DNA of 64,000 nt, taken from Patescibacteria group bacterium. Lineage in GTDB: Bacteria; Patescibacteriota; Minisyncoccia; Phycocordibacterales; PALSA-1337. The notes under the pieces were generated by a model that was not told the DNA's origin, ran no database searches, and worked only from the letters and a program-made list of their open reading frames with translations. Numbering within the stretch: position 1 is the stretch's first letter; every line of letters starts with the position of its first letter. This document shows positions 19,410-46,090 of this stretch, piece after piece. The position numbers and the translations under genes are program-made. The DNA lies in contig JBBTRB010000003.1 in the NCBI GenBank assembly GCA_038065395.1, positions 19,851 through 83,850 on the forward strand, read 5' to 3'.

Positions 19410-20568
19410 GGCGGCATTGTAGCATACCGATACAAAAAGGGGCCCACCTACTCAATCCTGAGAAGATGGGCCTTGAACTAAGAAGTTTTATGCAATCGTA
19501 TTGTTGAACTGAGAGACCCGAAACACTGAAGTCTGTAGATGCATGCCGGTGAGGAACCGTGGCGAGTAGTAAAACCGTAGCAAGATGTCACGGGGCACCT
19601 ATTGTTTCCAATTCAATCAGTCCGTCTCAGATAATACAACTTTCACAAGAATAGAAAAGGGCTCGCTGCACGAATGCAACGAGCCCGAATGCACGATCTA
19701 ACCAAGGATCGTAGTGGAGATGCGGCCCAATGGAACCGCGCAATATCTCGGCACAGACACCAGGAAGGGCGCTGACCGAGCTGCATCAGATTCAAACAAA
19801 GAACCGCACCTCCACATACAACTATAACCTATATGTGGAGAAAGTCAATGATTCAAGCTAGAACTTTAGTACACCTCTACCCCGTTCCACCCTTCGACCT
19901 ATAAAAGAAAGGGGGCTGCCATCTTGCGAATGGCAGCCCTTGTCTATACACATATGCTTTTAGACAGATCGATGCGCCAGAGAGTCCGAGTGATGCGCCG
20001 GGGGCGGTTGAGGGAACCTGAAGAGACCTAGTAGCTATAGGTCGGCATTACTCGGAACGACACGACCAGTCCGCCGACTATAATAGACCCTTCATCCCCA
20101 TGCAGTCAACAGGTTATCCACCGAGTTGTGCACAGGAACAATTCTCCGCAGGTTAAGAGCGTATCCACAATCTTCATATGCGAGGCAGCTTCGAGCGAAG
20201 ACTCGAGCCTTATTCCGGCTAACGAGGAGCGCGTGAATGTATCCTACATTCACAGCGTCCGAGTGAAGACGGGACAAGTGAATCTTATTGGATATAAGGT
20301 GAGAGTTTGAGCGAAGAAGATAACGAAGCAGATGGAGATTGTGGCCTAGCTCTAAGAAAAAAGACCGTCCCGAAGGAAGGTCTTGAGATTGGTCGGTGTC
20401 GAGGTCAGGTCTAACGGAACCTATGCAGCCAGGCTTGGTTGACCCAGGAAGGATCGGTCGAAGTACCCCCATATCTAAGTATTCTCACACAGGTCAAAGA
20501 AGATGGTTGCCACAATGAGCCCTCGACACCGGCCATAGAGAGTAGCGTGTTATGAGGATGAAGTCAAT
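19410..20568. other. ~1.15 kb ORF-poor hairpin-rich region; candidate large structured ncRNA or decayed element
   Basis: Only low-complexity short ORFs. Many perfect 6-10 bp hairpins. Contains one copy each of the 38-nt promoter-like motif (19878) and the 40-nt motif shared with 33783. Confidence 0.3.
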
Positions 20569-20991
20569 CTATTTCCCTGTACTACCAAAACCCCCTTGTC
20601 CTCTCGTTGTATCAGTAAGCTCTGAAACCTCCTCAATTTCCATCTGCTCCACTTTTTGGATAAGAATTTGTGCAACTTTATGACCAGCTTCAAACACATA
20701 TTCTTCTGCAGAAAGATTGATCGTACCAACAAGGACTTCACCCCTATATCCCGCATCAACCACTCCACCCAGTGTTTTGATACCCTCTTTTATAGCAATA
20801 CCACTCTTATCCCAGATCAGCCCCACATACCCTTCAGGAATCTCCAGAGCAATACCCGTACGAACAGCCTTTCGTTCCCCTGATTTCAGAATGGTCTTTT
20901 CCAGAGCATAGAGATCCAGGCCCGCATCATACTCATGTGCACGTGAGGGTAGCTTCGCGGCAGGATCAAGTTTTTTGATACGGAGGATCAT
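20569..20991 (-). CDS. dut: dUTP diphosphatase
   Basis: 140 aa with AGLDLYA, RTGIALEIPEGYVGLIWDKSGIA and GVVDAGYRGE motifs. Confidence 0.85.
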   Translation of the reverse strand: MILRIKKLDPAAKLPSRAHEYDAGLDLYALEKTILKSGERKAVRTGIALEIPEGYVGLIWDKSGIAIKEGIKTLGGVVDAGYRGEVLVGTINLSAEEYVFEAGHKVAQILIQKVEQMEIEEVSELTDTTRGQGGFGSTGK

Positions 20992-21043
20992 GATGCCTTT
21001 ATAGTATCACGACAATACATTTGGAAAATGATATATTTGTGCC

Positions 21044-21955
21044 ATGAAACCTACCGACCAAAGAACTCCCGATTCTCAATATCAACGCTTGCTTCGAGAT
21101 ATCCTAGAAAAGGGTGAACGAAGTAGTAGTCAGCAAGGAGTTGATACCATCAGTCTGATCGGTCCTTCACCACTTCGTTTCAAACTTGAGAATGGTTTCC
21201 CTATTATCAATGAACGCAACATGGCGCCGAAAGAGTCTGACCGGCTACCTGTGACTGTATGGAAGCAGGCTATAGGAGAAATATGCGCCTTTGCAAATGG
21301 TGTACGTACCCAGAAAGGTCTCGAAGAGTTTGGATGTCACTGGTGGAGCTCGTGGGTCACCGAAGAAAAATGCAAAAAGCGTGGTCTTGAAACTGGCGAT
21401 CTCGGACCAGGTTCGTATGGCGCAGCATTCCACGACTTTCCTACTGCCGAGGGTACGCCTTACAATCAATTCCAAAATATCATCGAACAGATCATCGAGT
21501 TCCCTCATCTGAAAACTCATTTCATTTCCCCTTGGATCCCTCAGTACATCATTCGAGGAACAGGTAAACAGCAAAAAGTAGTTGTATGTCCATGTCATGG
21601 CTGGATTCATTTTCGTGTACTGGATAACAAGTTGACCCTTCACATGTTCCAACGTTCCGGAGACGTACCAGTAGGCGTTCCTTCGAACATGGTTCAGTAT
21701 GCGGCCCTCCTTATGATGGTTGCGCAGGTTACCAACACTATCCCTTATGAATTCGTTCATAGCTTTTCGGATGCACATATCTTCGTAGATCAAATCCCTG
21801 CAGTCGAGACGATGCTTGCACGTGAACCAAAACCATTTGCAACCATGAAGATCGATACCTCTGTCAAAGACTTTTTTGAGTTCAGAAAAGATCATTTCAC
21901 TCTCGAAGATTACAATCCTCATCCAGGAATAAAAGGTATTCCTGTTGCAATATAA
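21044..21955 (+). CDS. thymidylate synthase (ThyA) family protein, divergent
   Basis: CPCHGWIHFRV (catalytic Cys), FQRSGDVPVGVPSNMVQY (R, S, D, N conserved), DLGPGSYG and HPGIKGIPVAI. Phosphate-binding Arg positions appear substituted (by-eye alignment). Confidence 0.75.
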   Translation: MKPTDQRTPDSQYQRLLRDILEKGERSSSQQGVDTISLIGPSPLRFKLENGFPIINERNMAPKESDRLPVTVWKQAIGEICAFANGVRTQKGLEEFGCHWWSSWVTEEKCKKRGLETGDLGPGSYGAAFHDFPTAEGTPYNQFQNIIEQIIEFPHLKTHFISPWIPQYIIRGTGKQQKVVVCPCHGWIHFRVLDNKLTLHMFQRSGDVPVGVPSNMVQYAALLMMVAQVTNTIPYEFVHSFSDAHIFVDQIPAVETMLAREPKPFATMKIDTSVKDFFEFRKDHFTLEDYNPHPGIKGIPVAI

Positions 21956-22008
21956 GGGGATAAAAAGCCTTAAATTAAGATGCAAATTAGGATATAATAA
22001 GATTCTCA

Positions 22009-22497
22009 ATGAATCGTTACATAAACCTTGCGAATGTTCGGGAAGAAGAACAGCTGAAGGTCATGGCCGAGATTAATATTCAAGGTCATTGTCCTTTTTG
22101 TACTGAAAATATACAGAAATATCACAAAAAACCCATAATCAAGGAAGGAAAGTATTGGTTTTTAACAGAAAATCAGTGGCCTTATACAAATACCAAACAT
22201 CAACTTTTGGCAATTCATAAAAAACACATAGAACATATTACCGAGATGGAAAAGGAGGCTGGAGCAGAATTAATAGAACTTTTTAACGAAGAATCCTTAA
22301 AAAGAAATATTATTGGTGGTGGAATAGCAATACGATTTGGAACCAATCCAGATAAAGGTAATTATGGCAGTACTGTTGCACATATTCATGCCCACTTAAT
22401 TGAACCAGATTTGGAAGCTCTAAAATCTGATGAATCTTGGAAATTCAAGTTTGGCCAACCAAAAAACTACCAGAAAGGAAAAAGGAAGGATGATTGA
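22009..22497 (+). CDS. HIT superfamily protein, GalT-branch-like
   Basis: HCPFC zinc knuckle plus VAHIHAHLIEP histidine triad; 162 aa. Confidence 0.55.
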   Translation: MNRYINLANVREEEQLKVMAEINIQGHCPFCTENIQKYHKKPIIKEGKYWFLTENQWPYTNTKHQLLAIHKKHIEHITEMEKEAGAELIELFNEESLKRNIIGGGIAIRFGTNPDKGNYGSTVAHIHAHLIEPDLEALKSDESWKFKFGQPKNYQKGKRKDD

Positions 22498-22563
22498 CAA
22501 AGTCTTTTTTCTCTATAGTATTGCGATTGGACTGTAGTAAACAATTGAAAACGAAAGGTATGT

Positions 22564-23160
22564 ATGAACTCTTTGTCACTCCCTGTTATTCTGGGACTTT
22601 CTGAGCATCAGGTTCAGACTCTCGTTAACTGCCGAACACTCAAACAGTATGCGAGCATGATTGCGGATTACTTGGCGGGCAAATGCCCTTTCTGTGATCC
22701 GCTCGACAGTAAAAATCGCATTCTTGTCCAGCACGGGAATACTCCCGAAACTCGCTGGAGAATCTGGGAAAATCCATTCCCACTCAAACACACGAGCCTT
22801 CATCTGGTCATGGCGCCAGAACGGCACGTTTCTCCGAATGCAGATATCCTTCCTACGGACATGGAAGCGATGACGCACCTTTTTCTCTGGGCCAAGAATG
22901 GCTATGGTGCCAGAGGTGGTTGCCTTGCAATGAGATTCGGCCCACCGAACTTCAATGCGGGTAGCGTTCTTCATTTGCACGCCAACATCATTGTTCCTGA
23001 TGGCACAGGTAGAGTCCATGTGACTTTGGCCAAAGAAAATAAAGAGATCACCGAAAATGTTCGACGGATGCATGTTTTCGAACGCCTTCGTACAAACAAA
23101 ACGACTCCGAAATACCTGAGCCCTGATGAGCGTGAACTAGTCAAAGGGCGTCTTGAATAG
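22564..23160 (+). CDS. HIT superfamily protein, GalT-branch-like (tandem paralog)
   Basis: KCPFCDP plus GSVLHLHANIIVP triad; 198 aa. Confidence 0.55.
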   Translation: MNSLSLPVILGLSEHQVQTLVNCRTLKQYASMIADYLAGKCPFCDPLDSKNRILVQHGNTPETRWRIWENPFPLKHTSLHLVMAPERHVSPNADILPTDMEAMTHLFLWAKNGYGARGGCLAMRFGPPNFNAGSVLHLHANIIVPDGTGRVHVTLAKENKEITENVRRMHVFERLRTNKTTPKYLSPDERELVKGRLE

Positions 23161-23177
23161 CCGTTTGGATGACTCTA

Positions 23178-23208
23178 CCTCTTGCGAGAAAATCGCGGGA
23201 GGTTTTTT
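23178..23208. terminator. bidirectional intrinsic terminator
   Basis: cctcttgcga-gaaaa-tcgcgggagg (with G-U pairs) followed by TTTTTT, between converging genes. Confidence 0.5.
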
Positions 23209-24043: not shown

Positions 24044-24044
24044 A

Positions 24045-24668: not shown

Positions 24669-24727
24669 GATGGTGTTTATGAGTGTATCTTAACTTATCA
24701 TATTACACCTCATGCTACAATAATCCT

Positions 24728-25237: not shown

Positions 25238-25253
25238 TAATGACCCTGGTTTT

Positions 25254-25431
25254 GTCATCCCCGCGAAGGCGGGGATCCAGGAGTAAGGGCGTAGCTACTT
25301 ACTTAACTCTATACAATTACAAAAGTCAGCATCATGTACATGAATGCTGACTTTCTGTTTTCTGTGATTAGATAAACCGATCGAACCATATACTGAAAGT
25401 GATTCTGGATCCCCGCCTTCGCGGGGATGAC
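25254..25431. repeat. RPE-like palindromic repeat element, long form (copy 3)
   Basis: Arms gtcatccccgcgaaggcggggatccaggag / attctggatccccgccttcgcggggatgac flank an AT-rich core with a perfect 9-bp hairpin agtcagcat...atgctgact. Confidence 0.8.
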
Positions 25432-25438
25432 ACGCAAT

Positions 25439-25861
25439 TTACTTCACCTCCACTCCCATCTGTCTTGCAGTACCTGCAACGATCTTCATGGCAGCATCGA
25501 CATCGTTGGCATTGAGGTCAGGCATCTTGCGCTCGGCGATCTCTTTGAGTTGCGCCTTGGTCAGAGTGCCTACCTTGGTGAGGTTCGGTTTGCCTGAACC
25601 CTTGTCTTTCTTGAGGGCTTTGAGGATAAGACTCGAGGTCGGAGGAGTCTTGAGGACGAAGTCGTATGAACGATCTTCGTAGACAGAGATGACCACGGGG
25701 ATCATATCTCCGATCTTGTCTTTGGTGGCATCGTTGAACTTCTTGGTGAAGTCGCCAATGTTAACACCAGCCTGACCAAGGGTCGGACCGAGTGGTGGAG
25801 CTGGGGTTGCCTTGCCTGCTGGGGCGATGACTTTTACTTTCTTTACAATCTTTTTTGCCAT
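25439..25861 (-). CDS. rplK: 50S ribosomal protein L11
   Basis: [35 protein letters not shown]... Confidence 0.95.
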
Positions 25862-25881
25862 AGTAGTAGATGGATATTACA

Positions 25882-27986: not shown

Positions 27987-28028
27987 ATAGATATATTTAT
28001 CTGGTAATTACGTTCATTATACATGCGT

Positions 28029-28110
28029 GTCATCCCCGTGAAAACGGGGATCCAGGATATGACCACGTCATGTGACCAGAATCCTGGATTCCCGCATACG
28101 CGGGAATGAC
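28029..28110. repeat. RPE-like palindromic repeat element, short form (copy 4)
   Basis: gtcatccccgtgaaaacggggatccaggat ... atcctggattcccgcatacgcgggaatgac; ends 4 nt before the folD stop codon. Confidence 0.8.
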
Positions 28111-28113
28111 ATT

Positions 28114-28965
28114 CTACTTACAGAGATCGAGTACGTTCTCGAAGAGAGCACAGACTGTCATGGGTCCCACTCCACCTGGAACAGGAGTGATCATCGCGAC
28201 AACATCTGCAACTTCTCTCGACACATCACCGACCATCTTCCCTTCCGATGAGGTATTGATACCTACATCGATAACGATCTGGCCTTCCCGCACATGATCC
28301 TTACGAATAAGACCGGCTGACCCGGCTGCCACGATTATAACGTCGGCGGCCTGTGTTTCTTTCACGAGATCTGGAGTGCCCCGATGACATACCGTTACCT
28401 GTGCACCAGCCTGCCTACACATCTCTGCTACCGGAGTTCCTACCAGGAGCGATCGTCCGATAACCGCCACCTTCTTCCCTGAAATGGGTACGTGGTAAAA
28501 CGCCAGCAATTCTCGGATACCTCTGGCTGTTGCGGGCATGACTTTTGCACCTGTAGTCAGACCATCTGCATCCTTTGCAGGGTCGATGTGTGCGATGACC
28601 TTGTCTCGGTTCATATGTGGAGGCAATGGAAGTTGAACTATGAGGGCATGTATCGATGCATCATCATTGCACTCTTGGATTTTGGAAATGAGCTCGGCTT
28701 CAGAAATAGTTTCGGGTAGCTGAATGTGTTTTTCCTGCACACCGATCTTGGCGGCAAATCGTCTTTTTGCATTGATAAAAGCCGTAGAGTCCTCGCGTGT
28801 ACCGACCTGAATGATCGCCAGAGTGGGCACAAAAGAAAGCGCCTCTATCTTCTTGATGAGTTCGGGGACTAGAGCATCACGGACAGTACGACCAGAGAGG
28901 ATGGTTGCGGGCATATGGGAGAGCGTAGCATTAAAATAATGCGAATCAAAAATTAATATATTCAC
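28114..28965 (-). CDS. folD: bifunctional methylenetetrahydrofolate dehydrogenase/cyclohydrolase
   Basis: 283 aa with GRSLLVGTPVAEM and VIDVGIN...GDV motifs. Confidence 0.9.
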   Translation of the reverse strand: MNILIFDSHYFNATLSHMPATILSGRTVRDALVPELIKKIEALSFVPTLAIIQVGTREDSTAFINAKRRFAAKIGVQEKHIQLPETISEAELISKIQECNDDASIHALIVQLPLPPHMNRDKVIAHIDPAKDADGLTTGAKVMPATARGIRELLAFYHVPISGKKVAVIGRSLLVGTPVAEMCRQAGAQVTVCHRGTPDLVKETQAADVIIVAAGSAGLIRKDHVREGQIVIDVGINTSSEGKMVGDVSREVADVVAMITPVPGGVGPMTVCALFENVLDLCK

Positions 28966-37641: not shown

Positions 37642-38163
37642 TTATAGATTATTTTGTAAGATATTTTGTACCCTCTCCAAGATCGACGACTCGTCCATGG
37701 TACTGTTGAGACGAGCCACCTGGGCTTTCATTTTTGGAATGAGAAAGTCGATCGTTTGCCATTGGATCTCACTTTCTTTTTCAGCATCTTCGGTAGCTCT
37801 GAGTTCTGGTTCGAATGTCTTCATTTTTACCAAGAAATATAGCGTGGTCTTTTCGATCGAAATATCTTCGATGGGATAATTCCCCTTGATCGAACCGATG
37901 TAGGTAACAATATCTCCCGTCATCCCGAACTCTTCCTTGAGACCCCGATGCAGAGTATCCTCTATCGACTCGCCCATCTCCATAGTCTCTCGCATCAAAA
38001 TATAGAAGTCTGTAAAATGTCTGAATTTATTTCTTGAAGTTACCTTTTCGAAATAGTGGCAACAGATCTTATTTTCTCCATTGACGATAACAGCACCGAC
38101 CGAAAGATGGTACGGATGTTGTTTCGTCCCTCTGAAATAATTCTCCATACACCAATTATACAC
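37642..38163 (-). CDS. NUDIX hydrolase
   Basis: Nudix box RETMEMGESIEDTLHRGLKEEFG (GX5EX7REUXEEXGU). Confidence 0.65.
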   Translation of the reverse strand: MYNWCMENYFRGTKQHPYHLSVGAVIVNGENKICCHYFEKVTSRNKFRHFTDFYILMRETMEMGESIEDTLHRGLKEEFGMTGDIVTYIGSIKGNYPIEDISIEKTTLYFLVKMKTFEPELRATEDAEKESEIQWQTIDFLIPKMKAQVARLNSTMDESSILERVQNILQNNL

Positions 38164-38177
38164 CCTCGACTATTGTT

Positions 38178-38351
38178 AGTTGCTACTATCCGTCGAGCCA
38201 CCTAGGTTGATCTCGAGTCCCCCCTTATCTTCCCCTTCTTCTTTGCCCATGAAGAATCCTTGCGTATACGCGATCCATACCACGATCGCGATGACGACGA
38301 TCACGAGAATGCCCACCACCATACCTGTACCCGAAGATTCGTTATTCATAT
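38178..38351 (-). CDS. hypothetical 57-aa single-TM peptide
   Basis: MNNESSGTGMVVGILVIVVIAIVVWIAYTQGFF...; below the ORF-track cutoff. Confidence 0.25.
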
Positions 38352-38410
38352 TTTAATTTGATTAAAAGCGAATAATACCTACCATGTATAGTATAGCGTG
38401 GAATGAAATT

Positions 38411-38431
38411 GGGTGCCTAATGGGATTCGAA
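38411..38431. repeat. 21-bp direct repeat of the tRNA-His 3' end (distal att site of the integrated element)
   Basis: gggtgcctaatgggattcgaa is identical to 56965-56985 inside tRNA-His. Confidence 0.8.
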
Positions 38432-38673
38432 GCTTACAGCTTCAGTACACCTTTCGCATTTTCTTCCCTTCTTCGCTAAAGCTTCGAAGTGTCGAAAATA
38501 TGCTCAAGGTCTTCGAATCCCATCCGCAAGGTGCGCAGGCACCTTGCTTAGTCACCCCTACGCAAAAATTCCCACGCGGGAATTTTGCTACGGGGTCGCG
38601 TGGTCGCGCAGGTTAGGACAATATTCGAGAAAATTGATGACGCGACGATCTACATTCCAAGCTTCAAAGATTG

Positions 38674-38712
38674 TTACCCCACACCTGCTCTCACTATATC
38701 TAAAAAATAATC
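38674..38712. repeat. promoter-like 39-nt motif, copy at left end of the island
   Basis: ttaccccacacctgctctcactatatctaaaaaataatc; 38/39 identical to 45677-45715. Confidence 0.5.
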
Positions 38713-38727
38713 TGACTCCCAAAATTG

Positions 38728-39921
38728 TTACAGATCACTTTCAAATTTATCCCTAATTACCTGAAAGCTGCTCATTTCTGTCTGAGACACAGCTTCGCCA
38801 CGAGGAAAATCTGTAGTTAGAGGATTAATAGGTGACCCGTTTTCAAACATGGCATATTGAAGATGGGGACCGGTAGAAATCCCTGTTGATCCTACATATC
38901 CGATCACGTCACCTTGCTCAACCGTTGCTCCGGTCTCTATGTCTTTGGCAATCTTTGAAAGATGAGCATACTGAGTAAGGTAGTTCCCATGTTTAACTTC
39001 AACTGTAATACCCAGACCTCCCTTTGATCCTGCAACGGTCACCTTACCGTCTGCTGTAGCAATAACAGGTGTACCGGAATCAGCTGCATAATCTATTGCA
39101 CGATGCGGAGTAACCTGTTTAGTAACTGGATTGGTACGCTTGTAACTAAATCCTGAGCTTATACGAGCATAATTAAGTGGTGATTTGAGAAACTGGCGAG
39201 CAAGAGACTTTCCTTCTGAGTCATAAAATTTATCATTGAAACGAAAAGCTGTGTATGTTTTGTCGCCGTTTGTGAATTTTGCAGCCAGTATTCTTCCAGC
39301 TCCTGCATCCTTGCCGTCAAGAGTTCGCTTTTCATAGACAACAGAAAAAGAATCCCCTTCGCGTATGTCGGTTGCGAAATCAATATCGCTTGAAAAGACA
39401 TCTGCAATTCCCATGGTTGCCTTGTCTTCGAGCCCTACAGACTGTGCCGCTAAAAATAGAGAGTCGGTGATCGTTCCTCTGGCTGTCGCATTCTCAATCA
39501 CATAAGGGATTTCTTCCTCCGTAGCAACGAAGGCATCTTCCTGCTTTTTTACATGAACCACCGTATCGCTATTTAATGGATACTCCATCGCTGCGAACGC
39601 TTCTTGAACAAATACGAGCTTAAGGACCTTCCCGGCGTTCATTTTTGTAAAATCAAAAACATCCTTCGAGGAGCTAAGGATGGAGTACGCTTGCTCATAG
39701 GGAACATTCATACCAGTCATTACCTCGGCGAAGGTATCTCCTGGTTCAATTTTATACTCTTTCACAATACCCTCAGGTAGATCACTTTGAGGCAACAATT
39801 GAAGCGCCTCACCTTGCTTTGATACTGCTTTTACATTATCCGATGCTCCAATTTTGATGCTAACGAGGGGGATGGTCGCAACAACAGCGAGCCCAAATCC
39901 CCACAGGGCAAATTTCTTCAT
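38728..39921 (-). CDS. M23 family (LytM-like) peptidoglycan endopeptidase
   Basis: HxxxD and HLQYAMFENG (HxH) M23 motifs; N-terminal signal/TM. Confidence 0.8.
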   Translation of the reverse strand: MKKFALWGFGLAVVATIPLVSIKIGASDNVKAVSKQGEALQLLPQSDLPEGIVKEYKIEPGDTFAEVMTGMNVPYEQAYSILSSSKDVFDFTKMNAGKVLKLVFVQEAFAAMEYPLNSDTVVHVKKQEDAFVATEEEIPYVIENATARGTITDSLFLAAQSVGLEDKATMGIADVFSSDIDFATDIREGDSFSVVYEKRTLDGKDAGAGRILAAKFTNGDKTYTAFRFNDKFYDSEGKSLARQFLKSPLNYARISSGFSYKRTNPVTKQVTPHRAIDYAADSGTPVIATADGKVTVAGSKGGLGITVEVKHGNYLTQYAHLSKIAKDIETGATVEQGDVIGYVGSTGISTGPHLQYAMFENGSPINPLTTDFPRGEAVSQTEMSSFQVIRDKFESDL

Positions 39922-39978
39922 AGGCTGTATATTGTAGCGAAAAAAGAAGAGCTTTTCAAGCTCCTAAAAGCCCTTATT

Positions 39979-41916
39979 TTATGAGGTTTTAAACAATCTT
40001 AGTCCGTTAAGTATCACCAGAATCGCCACTCCAGTATCGGCAGCAATGGCAATGCCGAGATTCGATATACCAAAGATGGCAAGGACGATGAAAGCGAGCT
40101 TGGAAATGAGCGCTGCAGTCACGTTCTGCTTTACGGTACGAAGCGCCTTTTTCGAAAGCCCCACAGCGTATGGGATGTTCAGAATATTGTCATTCATGAG
40201 AGCAATGTCAGCCGTTTCAATTGCCACGTCCGATCCCTTTGCTCCCATGGCAATACCGACATTTGAAAGTGCCAAAGAGGGGGCATCATTGACTCCGTCC
40301 CCGACCATCGCCACCGATCCGTATTTGTCTTTGAGCATCTGAATCTTCTTCACCTTTTCATCAGGAAGAAGTGACCCGTGCGCCTCCTTGATGCCGAGAG
40401 TTTCAGCAACGTATGAAGCAGTGTGCTGATTGTCTCCGGTAAGCATGATGGAAGTCACTCCCATTGCGGTAAGTTTCTCAATAGTCTGCTTAGCTTCATC
40501 TTTTATCCTGTCCGAGATAGCAAGAGCGCCCATGATTTTGTCACCTTCACTTACAAGAACCACCGTTTTACCTTCACGCTCGAGTTTCTCTGTCTTTTCA
40601 AGAATCTCCTTAGTCGTGACTCCATGGGCATCCATGAGCTTTAAATTGCCAACACAGTGTTCGAGATCATCACAGACCATGCAGGTTGCTTTACCTCCCT
40701 TACCAGCAATGTTCTGGTAATCCTGCATAGAGTGAGGATTGATCCCTTTTTCCTTTGCGTAGGCAAGGATGCTTTTCGAGAGCGGATGTGAAGAAAATTG
40801 CTCAACGCCGGCAGCGTCTTCAAGTACATCTTTCTCCGTGAAGCCATTAAAAGCGATCACATCAGATATGTAGGGTTCTCCGAGAGTGAGCGTGCCGGTC
40901 TTGTCGAACGCAACAGCTCTGACGTTCTTGAGCTCCTCAAGGTGTTTACCTCCCTTGATGAGTACACCTCGATGCGACGCTCCGCCGATTGCCGATGTGA
41001 TGGCTACAGGAGTGGAAATGACAAGAGCGCATGGACATGCGATGACGAGAAGCGTGATCGCCCTCTCAAGCCATATTACAAAAGGTTCACCAGTTATGAG
41101 AGGCAGCGCAGCAGCAACGATGAGAGCGATTAGAACGACCGACGGCGTATAGTATTTCGCAAAACGATCAATGAATTCCTGTGTAGGGGCCTTTGCCTTC
41201 TGTGCCTGTTCGACAAGGGCTATGATTTTTGAAAAAGTAGAGTTCTTGCTTTCCTTGGTTACCTCTATTTCTAAATATCCATTTTCATTGAGAGTTCCCG
41301 CAAAGACAGTATCGCCCTCTCGCTTGTCCTTGGGAATGGATTCGCCAGTGATAGTTGCCTCATTTACTGCTGATAGGCCTTTGATGACTTTGCCATCGAG
41401 TGGAATGAGTTCTCCAGGCTTTACCTGCACCTTTTGACCGACGATCACTTCACTTACTGGAATAGTCTTTCCATCAAGAAGCGTTGCTGTTTGTGGCGAC
41501 TTATGAAGAAGCGCTTGAAGCGCCCTTCGGGACCTGTCTATACCATAGTCCTCGAAGGCTTCCGCAAGAGAGAAGAAGAAAATGACAGCCGCTGCTTCCG
41601 GAAGTTCTCCGAGATATATCGCTCCGAGCGAAGCGATGACAACTAGGAAGTCGATATTGAGAAATTTCTGTTTTGAGAGTCCCCGCCACGCTCCTTTGAT
41701 GACGTAGATGCCCCCTGAAGCAATGGCGAGGGAGTAGATCGCTGTCACTGTCTCTGGATTGAATCCGAAGAGATTGAGAAAAAAGCCTGTAACAACGGAA
41801 ATCCCCGCAACCCAAGTAAGGAGTTTTTTCCAATTCACACTCAATGACGAAACCGCAGACTTATCTGTCTCGGGTTCGCAATGGTCACATGTGTTGTTTT
41901 GGATTTTGCTTGACAT
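39979..41916 (-). CDS. heavy-metal translocating P1B-type ATPase
   Basis: N-terminal CDHCEP metal site, TM CPC (IACPCALVISTP), DKTGTLT, SSHPLSK (HP), GDGVNDAP. Confidence 0.9.
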   Translation of the reverse strand: MSSKIQNNTCDHCEPETDKSAVSSLSVNWKKLLTWVAGISVVTGFFLNLFGFNPETVTAIYSLAIASGGIYVIKGAWRGLSKQKFLNIDFLVVIASLGAIYLGELPEAAAVIFFFSLAEAFEDYGIDRSRRALQALLHKSPQTATLLDGKTIPVSEVIVGQKVQVKPGELIPLDGKVIKGLSAVNEATITGESIPKDKREGDTVFAGTLNENGYLEIEVTKESKNSTFSKIIALVEQAQKAKAPTQEFIDRFAKYYTPSVVLIALIVAAALPLITGEPFVIWLERAITLLVIACPCALVISTPVAITSAIGGASHRGVLIKGGKHLEELKNVRAVAFDKTGTLTLGEPYISDVIAFNGFTEKDVLEDAAGVEQFSSHPLSKSILAYAKEKGINPHSMQDYQNIAGKGGKATCMVCDDLEHCVGNLKLMDAHGVTTKEILEKTEKLEREGKTVVLVSEGDKIMGALAISDRIKDEAKQTIEKLTAMGVTSIMLTGDNQHTASYVAETLGIKEAHGSLLPDEKVKKIQMLKDKYGSVAMVGDGVNDAPSLALSNVGIAMGAKGSDVAIETADIALMNDNILNIPYAVGLSKKALRTVKQNVTAALISKLAFIVLAIFGISNLGIAIAADTGVAILVILNGLRLFKTS

Positions 41917-41919
41917 TGA

Positions 41920-42117
41920 TTATTTGTTACCGCTCTTGCTCTTTGCGGCAGCCTTTAACTCTTTCCAAAAAGCTTTGTGTATCGACATTGTATCCTTCAG
42001 ATGTTTGCTGACCAACTTCTTAACGTCGGTTTTCGCGTCAGTGAATACCTCTTTGTGAATACGTACCTCTTCGTTGGCGTGATCTTTTAAAGATTTCAAT
42101 ATTTTTTGTATGTTCAT
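41920..42117 (-). CDS. hypothetical small Lys-rich protein
   Basis: 65 aa. Confidence 0.3.
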   Translation of the reverse strand: MNIQKILKSLKDHANEEVRIHKEVFTDAKTDVKKLVSKHLKDTMSIHKAFWKELKAAAKSKSGNK

Positions 42118-42131
42118 AGATTTAAATTAGG

Positions 42132-42788
42132 TTAATAGTTGACGTAATATTTTATCTTGGCATTTGCAGTCAAATCAGACACCCACTGTTGCGCTTCAGA
42201 CTGGAATTTCTGCTGTTTGAGCTGATCGCTGATCTGCTTTCTGAAATCCTCCATCTTCACGTCTTTTGGAAGAGTGGCTTTCGAGTCTTTGATGTATGCG
42301 TCTATCTCCGCTTCGCTCACAGCTACCTTTTCTGCTAGCAATTTTTCAAGCTTCTTTTGGATAGTGATCTGCTCTCGAAGTTTTTCCTCGGTCAAACCCT
42401 GTTGCGCAAGTGCCATTTCAAGTGTTCCGCCTTGAGATGTAACTTGAGTTTTTATCTTCTCAATTTCCGCATCAACTTCTTCTTTTGAGACATCTATTTT
42501 CTGCTTGTTTAATTCGGTCTCGATAAGTTTTTTATCGATGATCGCTTCGAGAGCCTGCTTGCCACCTTGCTTCTCAAGTTCTTTGATAACTGAAAGACGG
42601 CTGATAGGACTTCCATTTACCGTCGCAGCCACAAAGAGTCCTTTGGCAAAGATCAGGGCAATGATGATAAGAAGTACCGCTACTCCAATTGCAATATAGA
42701 GCGGCTTGGGCTTCTTGAATTTCAAATTGACGTAGCTTGCTTTAGGATCATCTTGAACATTTTTGTTTTCTGGTGTTGTATTTTCCAT
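42132..42788 (-). CDS. SurA N-terminal domain-like periplasmic chaperone, membrane-anchored
   Basis: TM anchor followed by a coiled helical domain resembling SurA_N/PrsA. Confidence 0.45.
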   Translation of the reverse strand: MENTTPENKNVQDDPKASYVNLKFKKPKPLYIAIGVAVLLIIIALIFAKGLFVAATVNGSPISRLSVIKELEKQGGKQALEAIIDKKLIETELNKQKIDVSKEEVDAEIEKIKTQVTSQGGTLEMALAQQGLTEEKLREQITIQKKLEKLLAEKVAVSEAEIDAYIKDSKATLPKDVKMEDFRKQISDQLKQQKFQSEAQQWVSDLTANAKIKYYVNY

Positions 42789-42801
42789 ATATATTTAATG
42801 A

Positions 42802-43458
42802 TTAATTATTTTTTGCCTTCTCGATAAGGAGCTTAAATGACTCGTATCCTTTCGGATTTTCTATCTTTTTTCCATCGAGGAAGAATGATGGGGTACCTTG
42901 GAGATTGAGACTGACTGCTTCCTTGTAGCTGTCATCGACTCGCTTCATGACCTCATCGCTTTTTACATCAGTTTTCCATTGCTCAATATTCATCACACCT
43001 GCTTCAATTGCATACTTTTCAAACTGATCTTGGTTTGCGACCGGCTTTTCGCTCCATTCTGACTGCTTGGTAAAGAGGATGCTGTACATCTCCCAGAACT
43101 TACCTTGCTTTCCGGCTGCTTCAACTGCATGCGCTGCTGTTCGGGAATTCTTATGTCCTGGCAACGGAAAGTATCGAACGACTAATCGCATATCGTCTTT
43201 GTATTCCTCTTTAAGCTTGGTAACTATTGGATAGAATGCTCCGCAAGCTTCACATTCGAAGTCGAGGTATTCAACAAGTGTTACCTTTGCGGTGCTCGTC
43301 CCAGAAACCCAATCATTTGCTTTGATCTCAAGTGCCGAAGCTTGACCGGTGTTTGTAGGTTCTACTTTATCTTCCGTCTTCTTGTAGCCTCCTTTCGCCA
43401 GAAGAAAGACGACGACAATCACGACGACGATTCCAATAATGATTTTAAGATTTTTCAT
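42802..43458 (-). CDS. DsbA-like thiol:disulfide oxidoreductase
   Basis: DFECEACGAF CxxC motif in a thioredoxin fold. Confidence 0.75.
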   Translation of the reverse strand: MKNLKIIIGIVVVIVVVFLLAKGGYKKTEDKVEPTNTGQASALEIKANDWVSGTSTAKVTLVEYLDFECEACGAFYPIVTKLKEEYKDDMRLVVRYFPLPGHKNSRTAAHAVEAAGKQGKFWEMYSILFTKQSEWSEKPVANQDQFEKYAIEAGVMNIEQWKTDVKSDEVMKRVDDSYKEAVSLNLQGTPSFFLDGKKIENPKGYESFKLLIEKAKNN

Positions 43459-43903
43459 AGGTATTTTTCTTTAAGCTGATAAATGCAAGCAGGTTAATAA
43501 TAATGAACGCCACCAATGCCATGAATGGAATGGTAATGAAGCCGAACCATTCAAAGAACTTGGTAGTGCATGATACTCCGAGCATGCATGGCGCAATGCT
43601 TTCGGGGAGAATCTTCCAATAAAGCAGGTTGTGGTAAATCGATATTAGAAGACCTGGAAGTGCGAGAGCAAGGACCGAGATGTAGGTCTTTCGGTCATTT
43701 CGAATAATACCTATCGCAACGAGAATCACTATCGGGTACATGGCGATGCGCTGATACCAGCATAATACACATGGTGGCAAGTTCATCACTTCACTGAAGA
43801 AGAGGCTTCCAGCCATGGCGATTCCTGCCTGAAGCAGGATGGCGTAGTGAAGTGTTTCGACTGATATTTTATTGATTAATTTTTTCATAATTTTAATTCT
43901 CAA
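43445..43903 (-). CDS. disulfide bond formation protein B (DsbB/BdbC family)
   Basis: PPCVLCWYQRIAMYP motif; 4 TM segments. Confidence 0.7.
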   Translation of the reverse strand: MRIKIMKKLINKISVETLHYAILLQAGIAMAGSLFFSEVMNLPPCVLCWYQRIAMYPIVILVAIGIIRNDRKTYISVLALALPGLLISIYHNLLYWKILPESIAPCMLGVSCTTKFFEWFGFITIPFMALVAFIIINLLAFISLKKNTYEKS

Positions 43904-44438
43904 CTTTACATACTTGAGGATCGATAATCTTTTTGGCGATCATGTAGACTGCGACTGCAAGCAGGATTGCTCCGATGATTCCAAACTCGCTGCCTCCGAG
44001 CGGTAGAAGCGTTAATATTCCTCCTGCGCCCACAAGCGTAAGGGTTGTGAGGAGAAATGACCCGCAGGCGGCACACCCCACTCCCAAGACTCCGCTTGCG
44101 ATACCAAGAAATCCAGTCGCAACACCTGTTTGTCCGACTTCCCTGATTCTGCGCTTCAGGAAGTAGGTGATCATTGCGATGTACATTCCAAATAGAATAG
44201 CAATCGCAATCGTGTAGGTAGCGGAGAGCGGTGTGAAGTTTGTTCCTATCGAACCCAGGAGACTGAGTGGCAATTGAATCTTACTTACGAAAGGTACATC
44301 CGATGAACTGACTACGCCCGCAACCAGTCGGATATTTGGAAGCCAAACAGCAAGCACAAATACCGACGCACTTACGACAAGTGCAATAACCACATAGGCA
44401 GGTTTGCGGAATACTTTTTGTAAAGCATCAAGAATCAT
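43893..44438 (-). CDS. hypothetical polytopic membrane protein
   Basis: Start chosen at MILDALQKV, abutting the upstream stop; contains GVGCAACGS. Confidence 0.4.
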   Translation of the reverse strand: MILDALQKVFRKPAYVVIALVVSASVFVLAVWLPNIRLVAGVVSSSDVPFVSKIQLPLSLLGSIGTNFTPLSATYTIAIAILFGMYIAMITYFLKRRIREVGQTGVATGFLGIASGVLGVGCAACGSFLLTTLTLVGAGGILTLLPLGGSEFGIIGAILLAVAVYMIAKKIIDPQVCKVEN

Positions 44439-44440
44439 AA

Positions 44441-45172
44441 TTATTTTGATGCAAGATCGATCAATTGCTTTATTGCAGAGATTGGCTGAGCTCCTGAAAG
44501 CGGATACTTCTTGCCATCTTTGCCGACCACAATGCTCCATGGTGTGCCATTGCCACCGGTTGCTTGAGCATTTTCAACTTCATCTTGAATATGCTTATCG
44601 TACTTCGTACTCGTGAGACAAGTGTTGAATTTTGCTGTGTCTAACCCTACGAACTGCGCAATCTTCGGAAGCTCTGCGGGATCGAGTCCATTGTTTGCAG
44701 GTGTGACCTCATAGAGGCGATCCGCAAATTCCCAAAACTTGTCGTTTCCTCCCAACTCGTTGGCGCATTCCATGGCGACAGCTTCCTTCCGGGCCTTAGA
44801 ATGAAGCTGATCGATTGGAAAGTGTCGGTATACCCATGCAACCTTTCCGTCTTTGCCGTAGGTATCCATCACATCATTCATCGTGTCTTGGAATCTCTTG
44901 CAGAATGGACATTCGGTGTCCGAGTATTCGACTATCTTCACTGGTGCGTTTATATCACCTCGAATGTGATCTTTTGATGTGACTGGTGCCATCTGCTCAA
45001 GATCACCCGTTTGCTGTGCCACTTGCTGTTGTTGTGGCTGATTTGCAGTACCTGATGCTGGTGCTTTGCCACCGCTGTAAATTACTGCGCCGGCAATGAG
45101 GGCTCCAGCAATAACTACAGCTATGGGCATTGCCAGCGTATTTTTTTGTATTGTTTCTTTGTTTTCTTCCAT
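44441..45172 (-). CDS. DsbA-like thioredoxin-fold protein
   Basis: DTECPFCKRF CxxC motif. Confidence 0.65.
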   Translation of the reverse strand: MEENKETIQKNTLAMPIAVVIAGALIAGAVIYSGGKAPASGTANQPQQQQVAQQTGDLEQMAPVTSKDHIRGDINAPVKIVEYSDTECPFCKRFQDTMNDVMDTYGKDGKVAWVYRHFPIDQLHSKARKEAVAMECANELGGNDKFWEFADRLYEVTPANNGLDPAELPKIAQFVGLDTAKFNTCLTSTKYDKHIQDEVENAQATGGNGTPWSIVVGKDGKKYPLSGAQPISAIKQLIDLASK

Positions 45173-45236
45173 AGCGACATAAAGTTAATAGTAAAAGCCG
45201 CAGTCCGAAAAACTGACGGCCAGCATTTCTTTGCCA

Positions 45237-45677
45237 CTAGAAAAGTTTAGGGTTTAAAATACCGCTTGAGAAAGCTTCCTTTAGAGGATTCGGGATGGAA
45301 ATCCTGTTTTTTAGGAAAAAGTTTCTGTATAAATTTGAAAGAGGCGGATTGGATGTATAAAAGATTTCACGCACGCCAAGCAATGCAAGCAGAGCGAGTA
45401 GAGAAAAGACGAGAGAAAGTGCTTCCTTTGCCGGAAGGACAGTAAACATATTTTGCCATGCCTGAATGTGCTCCATTGGCGACATTTTACAGATAGAGCT
45501 ATGGCCCGGCATGAACGGACAGTTAATAGGCTTTGGTCCGTAGTGTCCCGCCATTGCAAAATGGGATATTCCAAAAAGAAGAGTGACTAGAGTAAGCCCG
45601 ATGATAGCAAAGGTTAGAATTTTGAGGATTTTTGATCGCACGGTGTTAATTATATATTTTTGTTGGCCAATCGTCAT
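45237..45677 (-). CDS. hypothetical membrane protein
   Basis: 146 aa; the start codon lies inside the 39-nt motif. Confidence 0.4.
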   Translation of the reverse strand: MTIGQQKYIINTVRSKILKILTFAIIGLTLVTLLFGISHFAMAGHYGPKPINCPFMPGHSSICKMSPMEHIQAWQNMFTVLPAKEALSLVFSLLALLALLGVREIFYTSNPPLSNLYRNFFLKNRISIPNPLKEAFSSGILNPKLF

Positions 45678-46090
45678 TACCCCACACCTGCGCTCACTAT
45701 ATCTAAAAAATAATCCTGAACCCCCATTTTACCTGTAAATGCAGGTGTTCACCATTTTCCACCCTTTTTAAATGGGGGTTGACCACCGTTTTTTCACCGT
45801 TTTTAAACGGTGGTTACCCCCACTCTCACTCGCTATCTCGCTCAAAAAGTAGTTCCCGTTAATTTCCCGTTATTACGGGAACTTGGAAAGGCCTACCCCA
45901 CAGTCTCATTCACTATTTCGAGCTACTTCACCGATGACCGTAATCACCGTAATTTTGGACCGGACCAACTCACCTGTTATTCTCCTGTTCTATCAGGTGA
46001 GTACCCGCTAATTCACCGCTAATAAGGGTAGGAGAAACAGGTGCTTATCAGGAGTTATCAGGCTGCAAGGTTTTACCGTAAATCACAGCT
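45677..46090. repeat. non-coding array: three promoter-like motifs, each followed by duplicated 8-10 nt iterons and hairpins
   Basis: Motif copies at 45677, 45826 and 45893. Iteron pairs caccgttttt x2, cccgtta x2, accgtaat x2, cctgttat x2, ccgctaat x2, ttatcagg x2, several with adjacent inverted copies. Confidence 0.5.

Follow-up and report, generated by a model that had tools for sequence, protein, structure and literature searches.

A conserved bipartite motif in tRNA-integrating islands of Patescibacteria, a candidate site of the element-encoded MCM-like helicase

The motif that recurs in the window, a 64-kb stretch of a Patescibacteria genome, is best read as a conserved cis-acting site common to a family of elements that integrate and replicate themselves, and as a candidate origin-type binding site for Rep453, an MCM-like AAA+ helicase encoded in the same island. 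We give this reading, which draws on sequence comparison, a probability of roughly 0.45. The islands appear to form a tRNA-integrating, self-replicating family that is widespread in the CPR/Patescibacteria and apparently undescribed.

The motif and its copies

The core is a bipartite, polar element of 29 nt, TTTACCCCACC-N5-ACTCACTATWTCT, and does not extend into the A-rich right-hand end (TAAAAAATAATC) of the 38-nt motif first described. The strict form of the core (ACCCCAC-N9-CACTAT, 13 fixed bases) has four matches in 64 kb, all on the plus strand (38676, 45679, 45895 and 46103), for a chance expectation of about 0.002 occurrences. These copies score 28–32 bits with a 29-nt position weight matrix (PWM) trained on related loci, and a shuffled window gave no hits at 10 bits or above. 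The copies at 38674–38712 and 45677–45715 are identical at 38 of 39 positions, and no such match appeared in 100 shuffles.

All accepted copies (Table 1) lie inside an island of about 18.4 kb (38597–56967) integrated into tRNA-His. Among the five copies of the original prediction, those at 38673, 45676, 45814 and 45892 were retained, but the one at 19878 proved to be a chance resemblance, and the copies at 46100 and 55240 (degenerate and inverted) had not been listed. The 38674 copy had been placed at the left end of the island, which was essentially right. The variant c3 has a canonical counterpart in two relatives (L056 and L067). Among six related elements, pairwise identity is 0.93 for c2 and 0.94 for c4 vs 0.44–0.77 for the spacers, reflecting purifying selection within the lineage. 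The copy at 55240 falls within the last codons of the Rep453 gene and precedes the start of the recombinase by 119 nt; it is here that the motif is near-universal across the family.

Table 1. Positions of the island features and motif copies in the window
Feature	Position	Strand	Remarks
attL crossover core GGGGT	38592–38596		Left, tRNA-His downstream terminator; right, island start
Recombinase C-terminal piece, detached	38597–38712	+	About 38 codons; RVVAQVRTIFEKIDDATIYIPSFKDCYPTPALTISKK, then stop
Motif copy c1	38673–38712	+	32.4 bits; 78 nt inside attL; at end of the recombinase's detached C-terminal exon (...CYPTPALTISKK, stop)
Cargo module between c1 and c2	38713–45675	-	146-aa ORF through M23 peptidase; DsbA/DsbB and Cd/Zn-type P-type ATPase genes
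Motif copy c2	45676–45715	+	32.3 bits; minus strand adjoins ATG of 146-aa membrane ORF (GTGGGGTAATG)
Hairpin A	45720–45779		ACCCCCATTT...AAATGGGGGT; nested CCTG/CAGG hairpin; internal direct copies of 5' arm; plus strand -23.3 kcal/mol, z -2.9; minus strand z -0.8
Hairpin B	45781–45814		X-X-X' layout: CCACCGTTTTTT, CACCGTTTTT, then AAACGGTGG; z -2.6 and -4.9 on the two strands; 0.88 identity among relatives
Motif copy c3	45814–45840	+	Variant, 1-nt insertion, ACCCCCAC...CGCTAT; loose-pattern match
Hairpin C	45852–45882		GTTCCCGTTAATTTCCCGTTATTACGGGAAC; z -2.6; 0.91 identity, nearly invariant among relatives
Motif copy c4	45892–45920	+	28.3 bits
Hairpin D	45969–46001		CTCACCTG...CAGGTGAG; 5' arm repeated internally; z -3.4; 0.88 identity
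Motif copy c5	46100–46128	+	31.5 bits; overlaps last 10 codons of minus-strand DUF2726 gene (..GNSAEQGGVK, stop)
DUF5659 gene	53467–53739	+	Core gene, in 44/80 loci
88-aa ORF (p88)	53742–54008	+	Core gene, in 42/80 loci
Rep453	53956–55317	+	453 aa; MCM-like AAA+ helicase, C-terminal winged helix; candidate motif-recognising protein
Degenerate inverted motif copy	55240–55268	-	15 bits; plus strand reads ATACATAGTGCGTACGAGCCGGGGGTAAA
Large serine recombinase (LSR), cut short by integration	55387–56973	+	Ends ..LILEWGA, stop, at tRNA-His junction
tRNA-His	56962–57036	-	
attR crossover core GGGGT	56963–56967		At tRNA-His 3' end

The gene for the LSR spans attP and is split on integration, the recombinase losing about 38–40 of its last residues, and the detached tail runs on from ..LILEWG in unsplit relatives. 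The island recombinase has weak matches to the CcrA/B/C families. The DUF5659 and p88 genes usually stand before rep in the family. Circular contigs of the elements were sought and none was found. Rep453 has 1980 homologues, many of them 720–750 aa long with N-terminal Toprim or Prim-Pol/PriCT-1 domains. In its AlphaFold model (pLDDT 80, pTM 0.78) the C-terminal winged helix bears a weak resemblance to MarR, and residues 425–453, the region in which the motif is read as protein, are disordered (pLDDT <50).

Association of the motif with rep

The association with Rep was tested on 80 metagenome loci picked by the Rep453 protein profile alone, with the motif playing no part in selection, and 76 of them were testable, having sequence beyond rep. 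Counting a motif as associated when it scored at least 14 bits between -150 and +200 nt around the end of rep, it was present at the 3' end of rep in 70 of the 76. The link between motif and Rep is one of co-occurrence and position, rep itself having been the search bait. Usually a single copy is present, which along the rep strand reads ATAGTG..GGTGGGGTA, often with an inverted partner 17 nt away (an inverted pair is found in 33 of the 70 loci with a motif) and sometimes with a third copy 42 nt further; where several loci have three copies, their starts are 38 nt and then about 33–45 nt (mostly 42) apart. A distal copy stands just past the recombinase stop codon, which becomes the left end of the island when integrated.

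In 44 loci the rep-end copy is read as N-S-E..G-G-V, and its synonymous positions hardly vary: AAT in 42/44, AGT in 44/44, GGT for Gly in 37/37 and GGG in 40/40, with Val encoded by GTA or GTG only. Such near-fixed positions, in a tail that is disordered in the model of the window's Rep453, point to selection on the motif at the DNA level. Codon invariance does not extend to the first arm of the pair (Pro codons CCT 16, CCC 13, CCA 9 and CCG 3), and hence the single copy is more universal than the pair. Across Reps of 47–93 % identity the core hardly changes, so that only one case of covariation between protein and site is available, namely L210, where the Rep is distant (37 % identity) and both arms are altered in the same way, GGTGGGGGGT and ACCCCCCAC.

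A genome-wide scan, the kind of check proposed with the original prediction, gave 119 hits to the core. The extended consensus is also fitted by 57 of these, which come mostly from Patescibacteria MAGs, and a Rep453 homologue is encoded at 14 of the 119 loci.

A candidate site of the initiator helicase

If Rep453 is the protein that recognises the motif, it would contact both blocks, much as Orc1/Cdc6 does on ORB with a winged helix and an AAA+ element, and binding would be followed by helicase loading and the start of replication on the excised circle. The rep-proximal site would then have decayed in this island, and the four or five well-kept direct copies, together with the conserved hairpins (45676–46128), may now act as an origin region, main or auxiliary, in the manner of the P4 crr. 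An element-encoded recombinase or regulator had been suggested earlier as the binding protein. The idea of a site for a protein of the element holds in spirit, as the motif tracks the MCM-like helicase, but a recombinase site is not supported: GGGGT is all that the motif has in common with the reconstructed attP and attB, and the motif is moreover kept in 7/7 loci without an LSR homologue downstream, while one motif-bearing locus has a tyrosine-integrase-like gene in place of the LSR.

Several observations speak against an origin, the absence of circular contigs and the lesser universality of the pair among them. The rep-proximal copy in this island is weak (15 bits) whereas copies far from rep are perfect, and the copies here and in L108, L117 and L101 are dispersed among cargo genes in one orientation, whereas origins normally have clustered sites. 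A role as a boundary or in recombination would account for this dispersed layout no less well.

Motif copies at boundaries of cargo modules

Motif copies mark the boundaries of cargo modules. With one motif copy included, the module that lies exactly from c1 to c2 measures 7,003 bp, the spacing of the repeat, and it is missing from three relatives (L056, L067 and L111), in which a single motif copy joins the left flank of c1 to the right flank of c2. In L018 there is no DUF2726 gene beside c5 and a motif variant is found at that junction. In L108, L101, L117 and L034 copies in the same orientation lie between successive cargo genes, after the terminator of the upstream gene and before the promoter of the next, and on the cargo strand the motif has stop codons in all three frames.

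All of this favours a site at which cargo is inserted, deleted or swapped next to the recombinase gene, either by some site-specific activity or by homologous recombination across the conserved 29–46 bp, with the motif at the rep/recombinase junction as the border of the core module. As the primary role of the motif we consider it unlikely, though it deserves to be taken seriously. A single copy is not palindromic, unlike a conventional dimer site of a serine or tyrosine recombinase, and resembles neither attP nor attB of the element; the DUF2726 indel lacks two flanking copies, and most Rep-selected loci have one distal copy and no array. Exchange driven by homology alone would leave the invariant blocks with a free spacer, and the codon invariance in rep, unexplained. 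Under the initiator-site reading the motif could serve as a seam for module exchange as well, as with the 7-kb c1–c2 module, because it is the sole non-coding sequence common to otherwise mosaic relatives.

Regulatory and RNA-level explanations

An operator or insulator for a small regulator of the element (DUF5659, p88 or a 213-aa winged-helix protein), through which recombinase and cargo promoters would be controlled together, is rather improbable. Gene-oriented copies do precede start codons by 0–145 nt (c2 at the 146-aa ORF, a copy 33 nt before csoR in L034, and copies before three consecutive genes in L108) or about 60–300 nt ahead of the recombinase, and DUF5659 and p88 are core genes. 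However, the distance is not fixed, ranging from about 3 to >60 nt to the -10 in relatives as well as over the above span to the starts; the motif is kept in 10 of 11 loci without detectable DUF5659 or p88 upstream, and just 2 of the 80 loci have the 213-aa winged-helix gene. The copy beyond the recombinase stop codon points away from any controllable genes, save as an antisense or outward-reading site.

Action at the RNA level seems very improbable. On this view the rep/recombinase mRNA would carry a sense copy (AAUAGUG..GGUGGGGUA) that pairs with the complementary copy in the recombinase 3' UTR, or binds a factor, and recombinase expression would come under this control in the excised form alone, in which the gene is whole. 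The circular form would indeed have inverted copies on both sides of the recombinase gene, and the codon-level invariance fits an RNA constraint equally well, but paired copies show no complementarity between their variable spacers, the copies in the cargo region come after terminators on the cargo strand, and no known RNA family was matched.

The 38-base motif is most likely not a promoter. It had been proposed as a dedicated promoter for small hairpin RNAs, and a plus-strand promoter, sigma-70-like or phage T7-like (CTCACTATA), now has next to no credibility, its attractions being a superficial TTACCC...TATATC arrangement, the hairpins that come after the motif in the array and, as a lead only, the identity of ACTCACTATA with the T7 promoter from -10 to -1. 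No copy passes a sigma-70 consensus scan on the plus strand, the spacing of the two conserved blocks is unlike that of -35 and -10 boxes, and a search of the island genes found no single-subunit RNA polymerase. The motif is translated in rep and the recombinase tail (as YPTxxLTIS or NSE..GGV), the neighbouring island genes are all on the strand opposite to the proposed promoter, and relatives have canonical TGnTATAAT promoters at variable distances downstream of the motif. The hairpins are followed by T-tracts when read on the minus strand but not when read on the plus strand, and the distribution of the motif goes with the replication gene across phyla.

The hairpins of the array

The array hairpins are conserved among relatives, and seven of the eight strand/hairpin folds have z between -2.6 and -4.9, the exception being the minus strand of hairpin A. 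A search of the array for Rfam families gave no match. The order of motif then hairpin, originally described as consistent, holds in the array and recurs in about one-third of unrelated copies, of which 18/58 fold strongly on the side of CACTAT vs 6/58 on the other. The 19878 site, outside the island, has only 19 of 39 ungapped matches to the 45677 copy and a PWM score of -3.7, and 181 positions in the window match the 45677 copy at least as well. Its hairpin is a typical minus-strand intrinsic terminator that runs from 19939 to 19913, with an 11-pair stem, a 5-nt loop and the tail CCTTTCTTTT, the TATAAAAGAAAG being the complement of the T-tract. It ends a small, unrelated transcript, and the resemblance is due to chance.

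Relation to known systems

Among primase-helicase replicons (P4 alpha, pRN1 ORF904 and SaPI Rep), primase, helicase and C-terminal winged helix are likewise combined in one protein or operon. Initiator sites lie in or just 3' of rep, with a second cluster at a distance, in P4 (ori/crr), SaPI (ori) and pRN1 (downstream region), and the motif here is also in the 3' end of rep with a distant second cluster. Their iterons are short (6–8 bp) and tightly clustered, whereas the unit here is 29 nt, bipartite and polar, lies within coding sequence and in some elements is dispersed among cargo genes. The archaeal ORB is bipartite and polar, about 25–35 bp long with a G-string and inverted copies, and is recognised by the AAA+ protein Orc1/Cdc6 via a winged helix and a second contact. 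The motif shares the bipartite, polar form with a G-string and inverted copies, and Rep453 is also an AAA+ protein with a winged helix, but there is no sequence relationship and the likeness is one of functional analogy only.

The PeSL of T4-type phages, in which a stem-loop and a conserved motif are repeated between small cargo genes and modular shuffling has been proposed, is the nearest precedent both for the pairing of motif and hairpin and for a module-boundary role. The PeSL motif is, however, a true sigma-70 early promoter, whereas the motif here does not pass as a promoter and has separate promoters downstream of it.

SCC/SCCmec elements are likewise integrative islands with large serine recombinase(s), an MCM-like helicase (Cch in SCC) and resistance cargo, the island recombinase has its weak Ccr matches, and short direct repeats subdivide composite islands. 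They differ in that SCC targets rlmH and not a tRNA gene, that internal repeats of SCC are att-site copies whereas the motif is unrelated to attP/attB, that attP here lies within the recombinase gene, which integration splits, that the hosts are CPR bacteria, and that sequence searches of phage and plasmid collections detected no relatives of Rep453. An attP within the integrase gene, with pieces of the recombinase gene at both ends of the integrated element, is shared with SSV1-type integrases, but those are archaeal tyrosine recombinases, whereas the enzyme here is a bacterial large serine recombinase that gives up only its C-terminal end.

Motif copies in the window

The two long copies of the motif, at 38674-38712 and 45677-45715, lie 7,003 bp apart and are identical at 38 of 39 positions, confirming the likeness claimed for them in the original prediction. 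The strict core (ACCCCAC, block 1, and CACTAT, block 2, separated by 9 nt) is present only four times on the plus strand of the 64 kb, and a 29-nt weight matrix derived from related loci gave these copies 28-32 bits; in a shuffled control window no match reached 10 bits. A fifth copy includes a 1-nt insertion, and the matrix added an inverted and degenerate copy (Table). All true copies fall within one island.

Position 19878, proposed as a further diverged copy, has to be removed from the list, as it shares 19/39 ungapped matches with the copy at 45677, a level equalled or bettered by 181 positions of the window, and has a matrix score of -3.7. The hairpin beside it conforms on the minus strand to the definition of an intrinsic terminator, namely a GC-rich stem with a loop of 3-8 nt and a T-tract directly after it, and closes an approximately 165-nt unit starting at a promoter-like site (tandem unit 1 in the Table), and the TATAAAAGAAAG at 19878 is the complement of the T-tract of this terminator.

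Table. Positions of the motif copies, island features and other elements in the window
Feature	Position	Strand	Remarks
Strict motif cores	38676, 45679, 45895, 46103	+	ACCCCAC-N9-CACTAT
Fifth motif copy	45814-45840	+	1-nt insertion
Degenerate motif copy	55240-55268	-	inverted; 15 bits
Block-1 fragment	55327-55335		TTACCCCAC; isolated, without CACTAT block; between rep stop and recombinase start
Hairpin units	45720-46095		approximately 10-11 nt; loose consensus YCACCGTTWTT; two direct and one inverted copy
Crossover at attL	38592-38596		GGGGT
Crossover at attR	56963-56967		GGGGT
attP junction sequence			contains GGAATGGGGTCGCGTGGTCGC
Empty attB junction sequence			contains TTTTGCTACGGGGTGCCTAATGGG
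Island cargo		-	CsoR/CopA, DUF305, DsbD-like, cupredoxin, DUF7695, DUF2726
Island cargo, further		-	146-aa membrane ORF, two DsbA, DsbB, SurA-like, Cd/Zn-type ATPase, M23 peptidase
Island core		+	DUF5659, 88-aa ORF, 453-aa ORF (Rep453), 528-aa LSR
Partial tRNA-His 3' end	38407-38431		24/25 identical to 56960-56984
Palindrome	52631-52647		ATACCCCCTAGGGGTAT; between divergent csoR-copA operon and 213-aa winged-helix gene
Tandem unit 1	20109..20080 -> 19939..19913	-	MFE -63.2, z -4.1
Tandem unit 2	19848..19821 -> 19686..19659	-	MFE -82.5, z -7.3
MITE/REP-like repeats	6439-6529, 11878-11968, 14890-14950, 25248-25436, 28021-28116, 62904-63098		dispersed; arms TGTCATCCCCGCGAAGGCGGGGATCCAG

Island ends and the split recombinase gene

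The window sequence was also matched in CAYHKE010000001.1 (GCA_964357315.1) and in Hainich groundwater assemblies. The reading frame of the large serine recombinase (LSR) enters the 3' end of tRNA-His, where the protein ends in ..LILEWGA*. In many relatives, an ORF ending in W-G-R-(I/V)-V-x-x-V-R-T...Y-I-P-D-L...* stops a few nt before the motif, and window positions 38597-38712 encode the corresponding peptide, RVVAQVRTIFEKIDDATIYIPSFKDC-YPTPALTISKK*. When 56967 is joined to 38597, a single open frame of 565 codons is restored. Database proteins include two with the contiguous LSR state, P0125 (..LILEWGAIVEYVRTGFENRGDSSVIIPDFK) and P0121, and three, P0131-P0133, that are left-junction fusions to unrelated upstream sequence. 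Because both contiguous and split LSR proteins exist and the joined frame is open, attP falls within the LSR gene, with the crossover at GGGGT. The sequences of attL and attR were used to reconstruct attP and attB.

The LSR homology ends between -14 and +3 nt from an opposite-strand tRNA in 14 of the 19 metagenomic relatives (loci within L128-L207) whose LSR alignment extends to residue ~526-531, the tRNAs being Asn (6), His (4), Trp (2), Gly (1) and Glu (1). Hence, the split gene is a trait of the family: integration at tRNA 3' ends leaves the last ~40 LSR codons at the opposite end of the island, and the split could act as a directionality switch.

A 25-nt tRNA-His repeat at 38407-38431 was considered as the left end and rejected. 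The left end was set at 38592-38596 instead, since this is where the LSR C-terminal exon begins and unsplit homologues run through the point without a break. The repeat, which is ~165 nt outside attL, was probably left by an earlier integration or excision at tRNA-His. Signs of tandem accretion were seen in two related loci: L164 (Ga0210006_1000625) carries a second, unsplit and divergent LSR gene (2-1126) that ends at a motif copy upstream of a complete element, and L011 has two ends consisting of LSR exon plus motif (238-353 and 2129-2244), 1.9 kb apart.

Association of the motif with rep

A genome-wide scan, as suggested in the original prediction, was performed with ACCCCAC-N9-CACTATWTC and found the core well beyond the window, at no fewer than 119 loci in 185,579 species genomes. 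Among the 119 matches listed, the unspecified positions also fit an extended consensus, TTTACCCCACCCTGCTACTCACTATTTCT, in 57, which are mainly from Patescibacteria MAGs and in part from other uncultured phyla. In the 119 loci, tblastn detected Rep453 homologues in 14 and LSR homologues in 10. Viral contigs included three loci with the core pattern, two of them family-like, and no match in a single-protein Rep search; a Rep profile search of the same contigs recovered one distant relative. The phage and plasmid collections had no match to the motif pair or to Rep453, no circular contigs were found when these were sought as evidence for an episome, and a limited full-text literature search returned no account of the motif or of the element family.

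In order to retrieve relatives independently of the motif, a Rep453 protein profile (A3) was used, and it yielded 80 metagenome loci. The motif was present within -150 to +200 nt of the rep end in 70 of the 76 with sequence beyond rep, almost always including one copy that reads ATAGTG..GGTGGGGTA on the rep strand. An inverted partner is found in 33 loci, the pair having the fixed geometry ACCCCAC-N9-CACTAT-N17-ATAGTG-N9-GTGGGGT, and several loci have a third copy, usually 42 nt further on. Extra copies in these loci are mostly single, in opposite orientation and 5-11 kb upstream; where this could be checked, the distal copy follows the detached LSR exon and marks the left end of the element. 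Comparing the rep-proximal and distal copies within elements for covariation gave no information, as the core hardly varies.

In 44 loci, translation of the rep-strand copy gives N-S-E..G-G-V, and the synonymous positions of the copy are fixed (AAT 42/44, AGT 44/44, Gly GGT 37/37, GGG 40/40, Val GTA or GTG only), a pattern of codon use indicating that the constraint is on the DNA, not the protein. The codons of the partner arm, read Y-P-T, are not invariant, and thus the single rep-strand copy is the universal unit. The flanks of the motif are A/T-rich. In a distant Rep453 homologue (IMG/VR contig, 37 % identity), both arms of the motif are changed alike, to GGTGGGGGGT and ACCCCCCAC.

Searches of Rep453 against local Pfam, PHROGs and NCBIfam models found no match. 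Its homologues at E <= 1e-10 number 1980, and many of these are 720-750 aa long with N-terminal Toprim or Prim-Pol/PriCT-1 primase domains. In the AlphaFold model (pLDDT 80, pTM 0.78), an AAA+ core precedes a winged helix (residues 366-416) that weakly resembles MarR, and MCM helicases were the best Foldseek matches (E 1e-7). Residues 425-453, which cover the stretch encoded by the motif, are disordered in the model (pLDDT below 50).

The motif was retained in 10 of 11 loci that have no detectable upstream DUF5659 or 88-aa ORF, and in one locus a tyrosine-integrase-like gene replaces the LSR and the motif is present. The original prediction had also raised a site for an element-encoded recombinase or regulator. 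Recognition by the recombinase did not hold, as the motif is kept in 7/7 loci lacking a downstream LSR homologue, shares only GGGGT with attP and attB and gave local alignment scores of 17 or less; an LSR att or pseudo-att site was rejected on both grounds. A single motif copy also lacks the dyad symmetry about a central dinucleotide that such sites have. The broader idea of a site for an element protein stands, in that the motif tracks rep.

We tentatively read the motif, by analogy, as an origin-type recognition site for the MCM-like initiator helicase of the element (probability approximately 0.45). Linkage to the putative initiator gene is constant and independent of LSR, DUF5659 and the 88-aa ORF, and multiple copies occur in a defined, often inverted geometry. 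Rep453 as the initiator helicase would recognise the motif; both binding and a role in replication are proposals. The P4 alpha protein with its ori and crr sites offers the analogy for an origin, SaPI and pRN1 origins that are next to rep offer one for the position at the rep end, and the ORB sites of archaeal origins are bipartite and polar, like the motif.

Mosaic seams and possible operator or capture-site roles

The motif is also found at module boundaries. In L056, L067 and L111, a single copy lies between the left flank of the 38676 copy (LSR exon) and the right flank of the 45679 copy (hairpin array), whereas the window has an extra 7-kb module (146-aa ORF to M23) and a duplicated motif. 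The DUF2726 gene adjoining the 46103 copy is missing from L018, and same-orientation copies separate successive cargo genes in L108, L101, L117 and L034. These single-copy joins and copies between cargo genes indicate that the motif also marks mosaic seams. A recombination seam as its primary role is nevertheless unlikely; the use at seams may be secondary, arising from the motif being the only conserved non-coding sequence.

An operator is a still less probable identity. Minus-strand transcripts starting after GTGGGGTA would support an operator or promoter. A CsoR operator was considered, as TACCCC/GGGGTA resembles CsoR boxes, and rejected on the grounds that the geometry differs and most elements have no csoR. 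The palindrome at 52631-52647 does, from its sequence, look like a CsoR operator, and a similar box is present in the csoR promoter spacer of L034.

It is marginally more doubtful again that the motif is a dedicated capture site at which cargo modules (promoter, one or more genes, terminator hairpin) are inserted serially 3' of the recombinase gene, with exchange catalysed or targeted by the replication protein or another factor. This would amount to an integron-like cassette platform built from different parts, namely a split-gene serine recombinase, an MCM-like helicase and a non-palindromic bipartite site. An integron array has a tyrosine recombinase, IntI, and attC sites that are palindromic and contain a GTTRRRY core; attC and attI were rejected as there is no IntI gene and the motif is not palindromic and lacks this core. 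IS200/IS605-type or REP-type ends and ssi/sso signals were rejected because no matching enzyme genes are present.

Array hairpins and transcription signals

The order of motif then hairpin, put forward in the original prediction as consistent, was upheld in the array and in a tendency among unrelated copies (strong folds on the CACTAT side in 18/58 versus 6/58), and fails at 19878, where there is no motif. Hairpins A-D of the array were stable in 7 of 8 strand and hairpin folds (z -2.6 to -4.9), the minus strand of hairpin A giving z -0.8. They have an X-X-X' layout, in which the 5' arm is repeated once within a 13-17-nt loop with a period of ~10-11 nt. Across six elements (the window, L116, L018, L067, L111 and L056), conservation of the hairpins equals that of the motif: pairwise identity was 0.88-0.91 for hairpins B, C and D, 0.93 and 0.94 for the motif copies at 45679 and 45895, and 0.44-0.77 for the spacers. 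Pairing in hairpin A is kept by a switch of partners, CCCCCATTT/AAATGGGGG in the window versus CCACCATTT/AAATGGTGG in L067 and L111. In L067, both direct copies of one hairpin unit share an A to G change, which suggests that the direct repeats evolve in concert and not by simple stem maintenance.

The outer stems around these loops were not called by a terminator consensus scan; T-tracts follow two array hairpins on the minus strand, and clear bidirectional terminators adjoin the CACTAT side of the motif in unrelated loci. Candidate roles of the hairpins are as a terminator, an insulator or a DNA structure at the origin. Rfam searches brought only two tRNAs in the window to the gathering score and nothing better than E 0.66 in the array, and it is very improbable that the motif acts at the RNA level.

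That the motif is a dedicated promoter driving small hairpin RNAs, as originally predicted, can scarcely be sustained, since there is no sigma-70 match on the plus strand and the motif is translated in two genes. A consensus sigma-70 scan of 38000-47000 (hexamers 16-18 nt apart, -10 hexamer with A as second and T as sixth base) listed none of the copies as a plus-strand site. Even TTTACC-16-TATWTC, the best reading on the plus strand, is missing the invariant final T of the -10, the conserved blocks are not at -35/-10 spacing, and copies sit within the coding ends of rep and the recombinase, not between genes as a sigma-70 promoter requires. A minus-strand promoter with ribosome-binding site was suggested by the copy at 45679, which contains TATAGT and directly adjoins an ATG. 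As a general role this was rejected, because distances to the start codon range from 0 to 145 nt, separate promoters lie downstream and no -35 is conserved. In relatives, read in the orientation of the cargo genes, terminators precede the motif and TGnTATAAT or TTGACA-17-TATAAT promoters follow it at variable distance. A T7-like promoter, suggested by CTCACTATA identity, was rejected given the wrong orientation relative to the genes, the position in coding sequence and the absence of a single-subunit RNA polymerase gene from the island and related loci in Pfam, PHROGs and NCBIfam searches.

Relationship to known elements

Of the described systems, SCCmec is nearest in architecture, as both combine a serine recombinase, an MCM-like helicase and cargo, here an LSR and Rep453 in an integrated cargo island. 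However, SCC integrates at the 3' end of rlmH via Ccr-type att sites and this island at a tRNA 3' end, the matches of the island recombinase to Ccr are far below family cut-offs, and Rep453 matches Cch by fold only. The split LSR gene is a bacterial, serine-recombinase counterpart of the split integrase gene of archaeal SSV1/SSV viruses.

The analysis defines a compact and widespread core module, made up of DUF5659, a small ORF, an MCM-like winged-helix helicase, a 29-nt cis site and a tRNA-targeting LSR, together with exact attL and attR junctions, reconstructed attP and attB and a candidate origin sequence. CPR/Patescibacteria account for a large part of bacterial diversity, and to our knowledge there are almost no genetic tools for them and few characterised mobile elements. 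If the motif is an origin bound by Rep, rep plus motif is a candidate minimal replicon, and the recombinase plus attP is a candidate integration system for these bacteria. The cargo also shows how ultra-small bacteria of groundwater package metal resistance (Cu and Cd/Zn ATPases, Dsb proteins) and exchange it with one another.

Other repeats in the window

Two tandem units of ~165 nt, each with a sigma-70-like promoter and an intrinsic terminator, occupy 19650-20109 on the minus strand, and folding shows strong structure in both (Table). They had no Rfam match at E <= 1, an Rfam search of 19300-20200 was likewise without a match, and they are candidates for unannotated small RNAs of this CPR genome. 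A MITE/REP-like palindromic repeat family, unrelated to the motif studied here, is also dispersed in the window; the arms at 25253-25280 and 25405-25432 are 100 % complementary and 124 nt apart.
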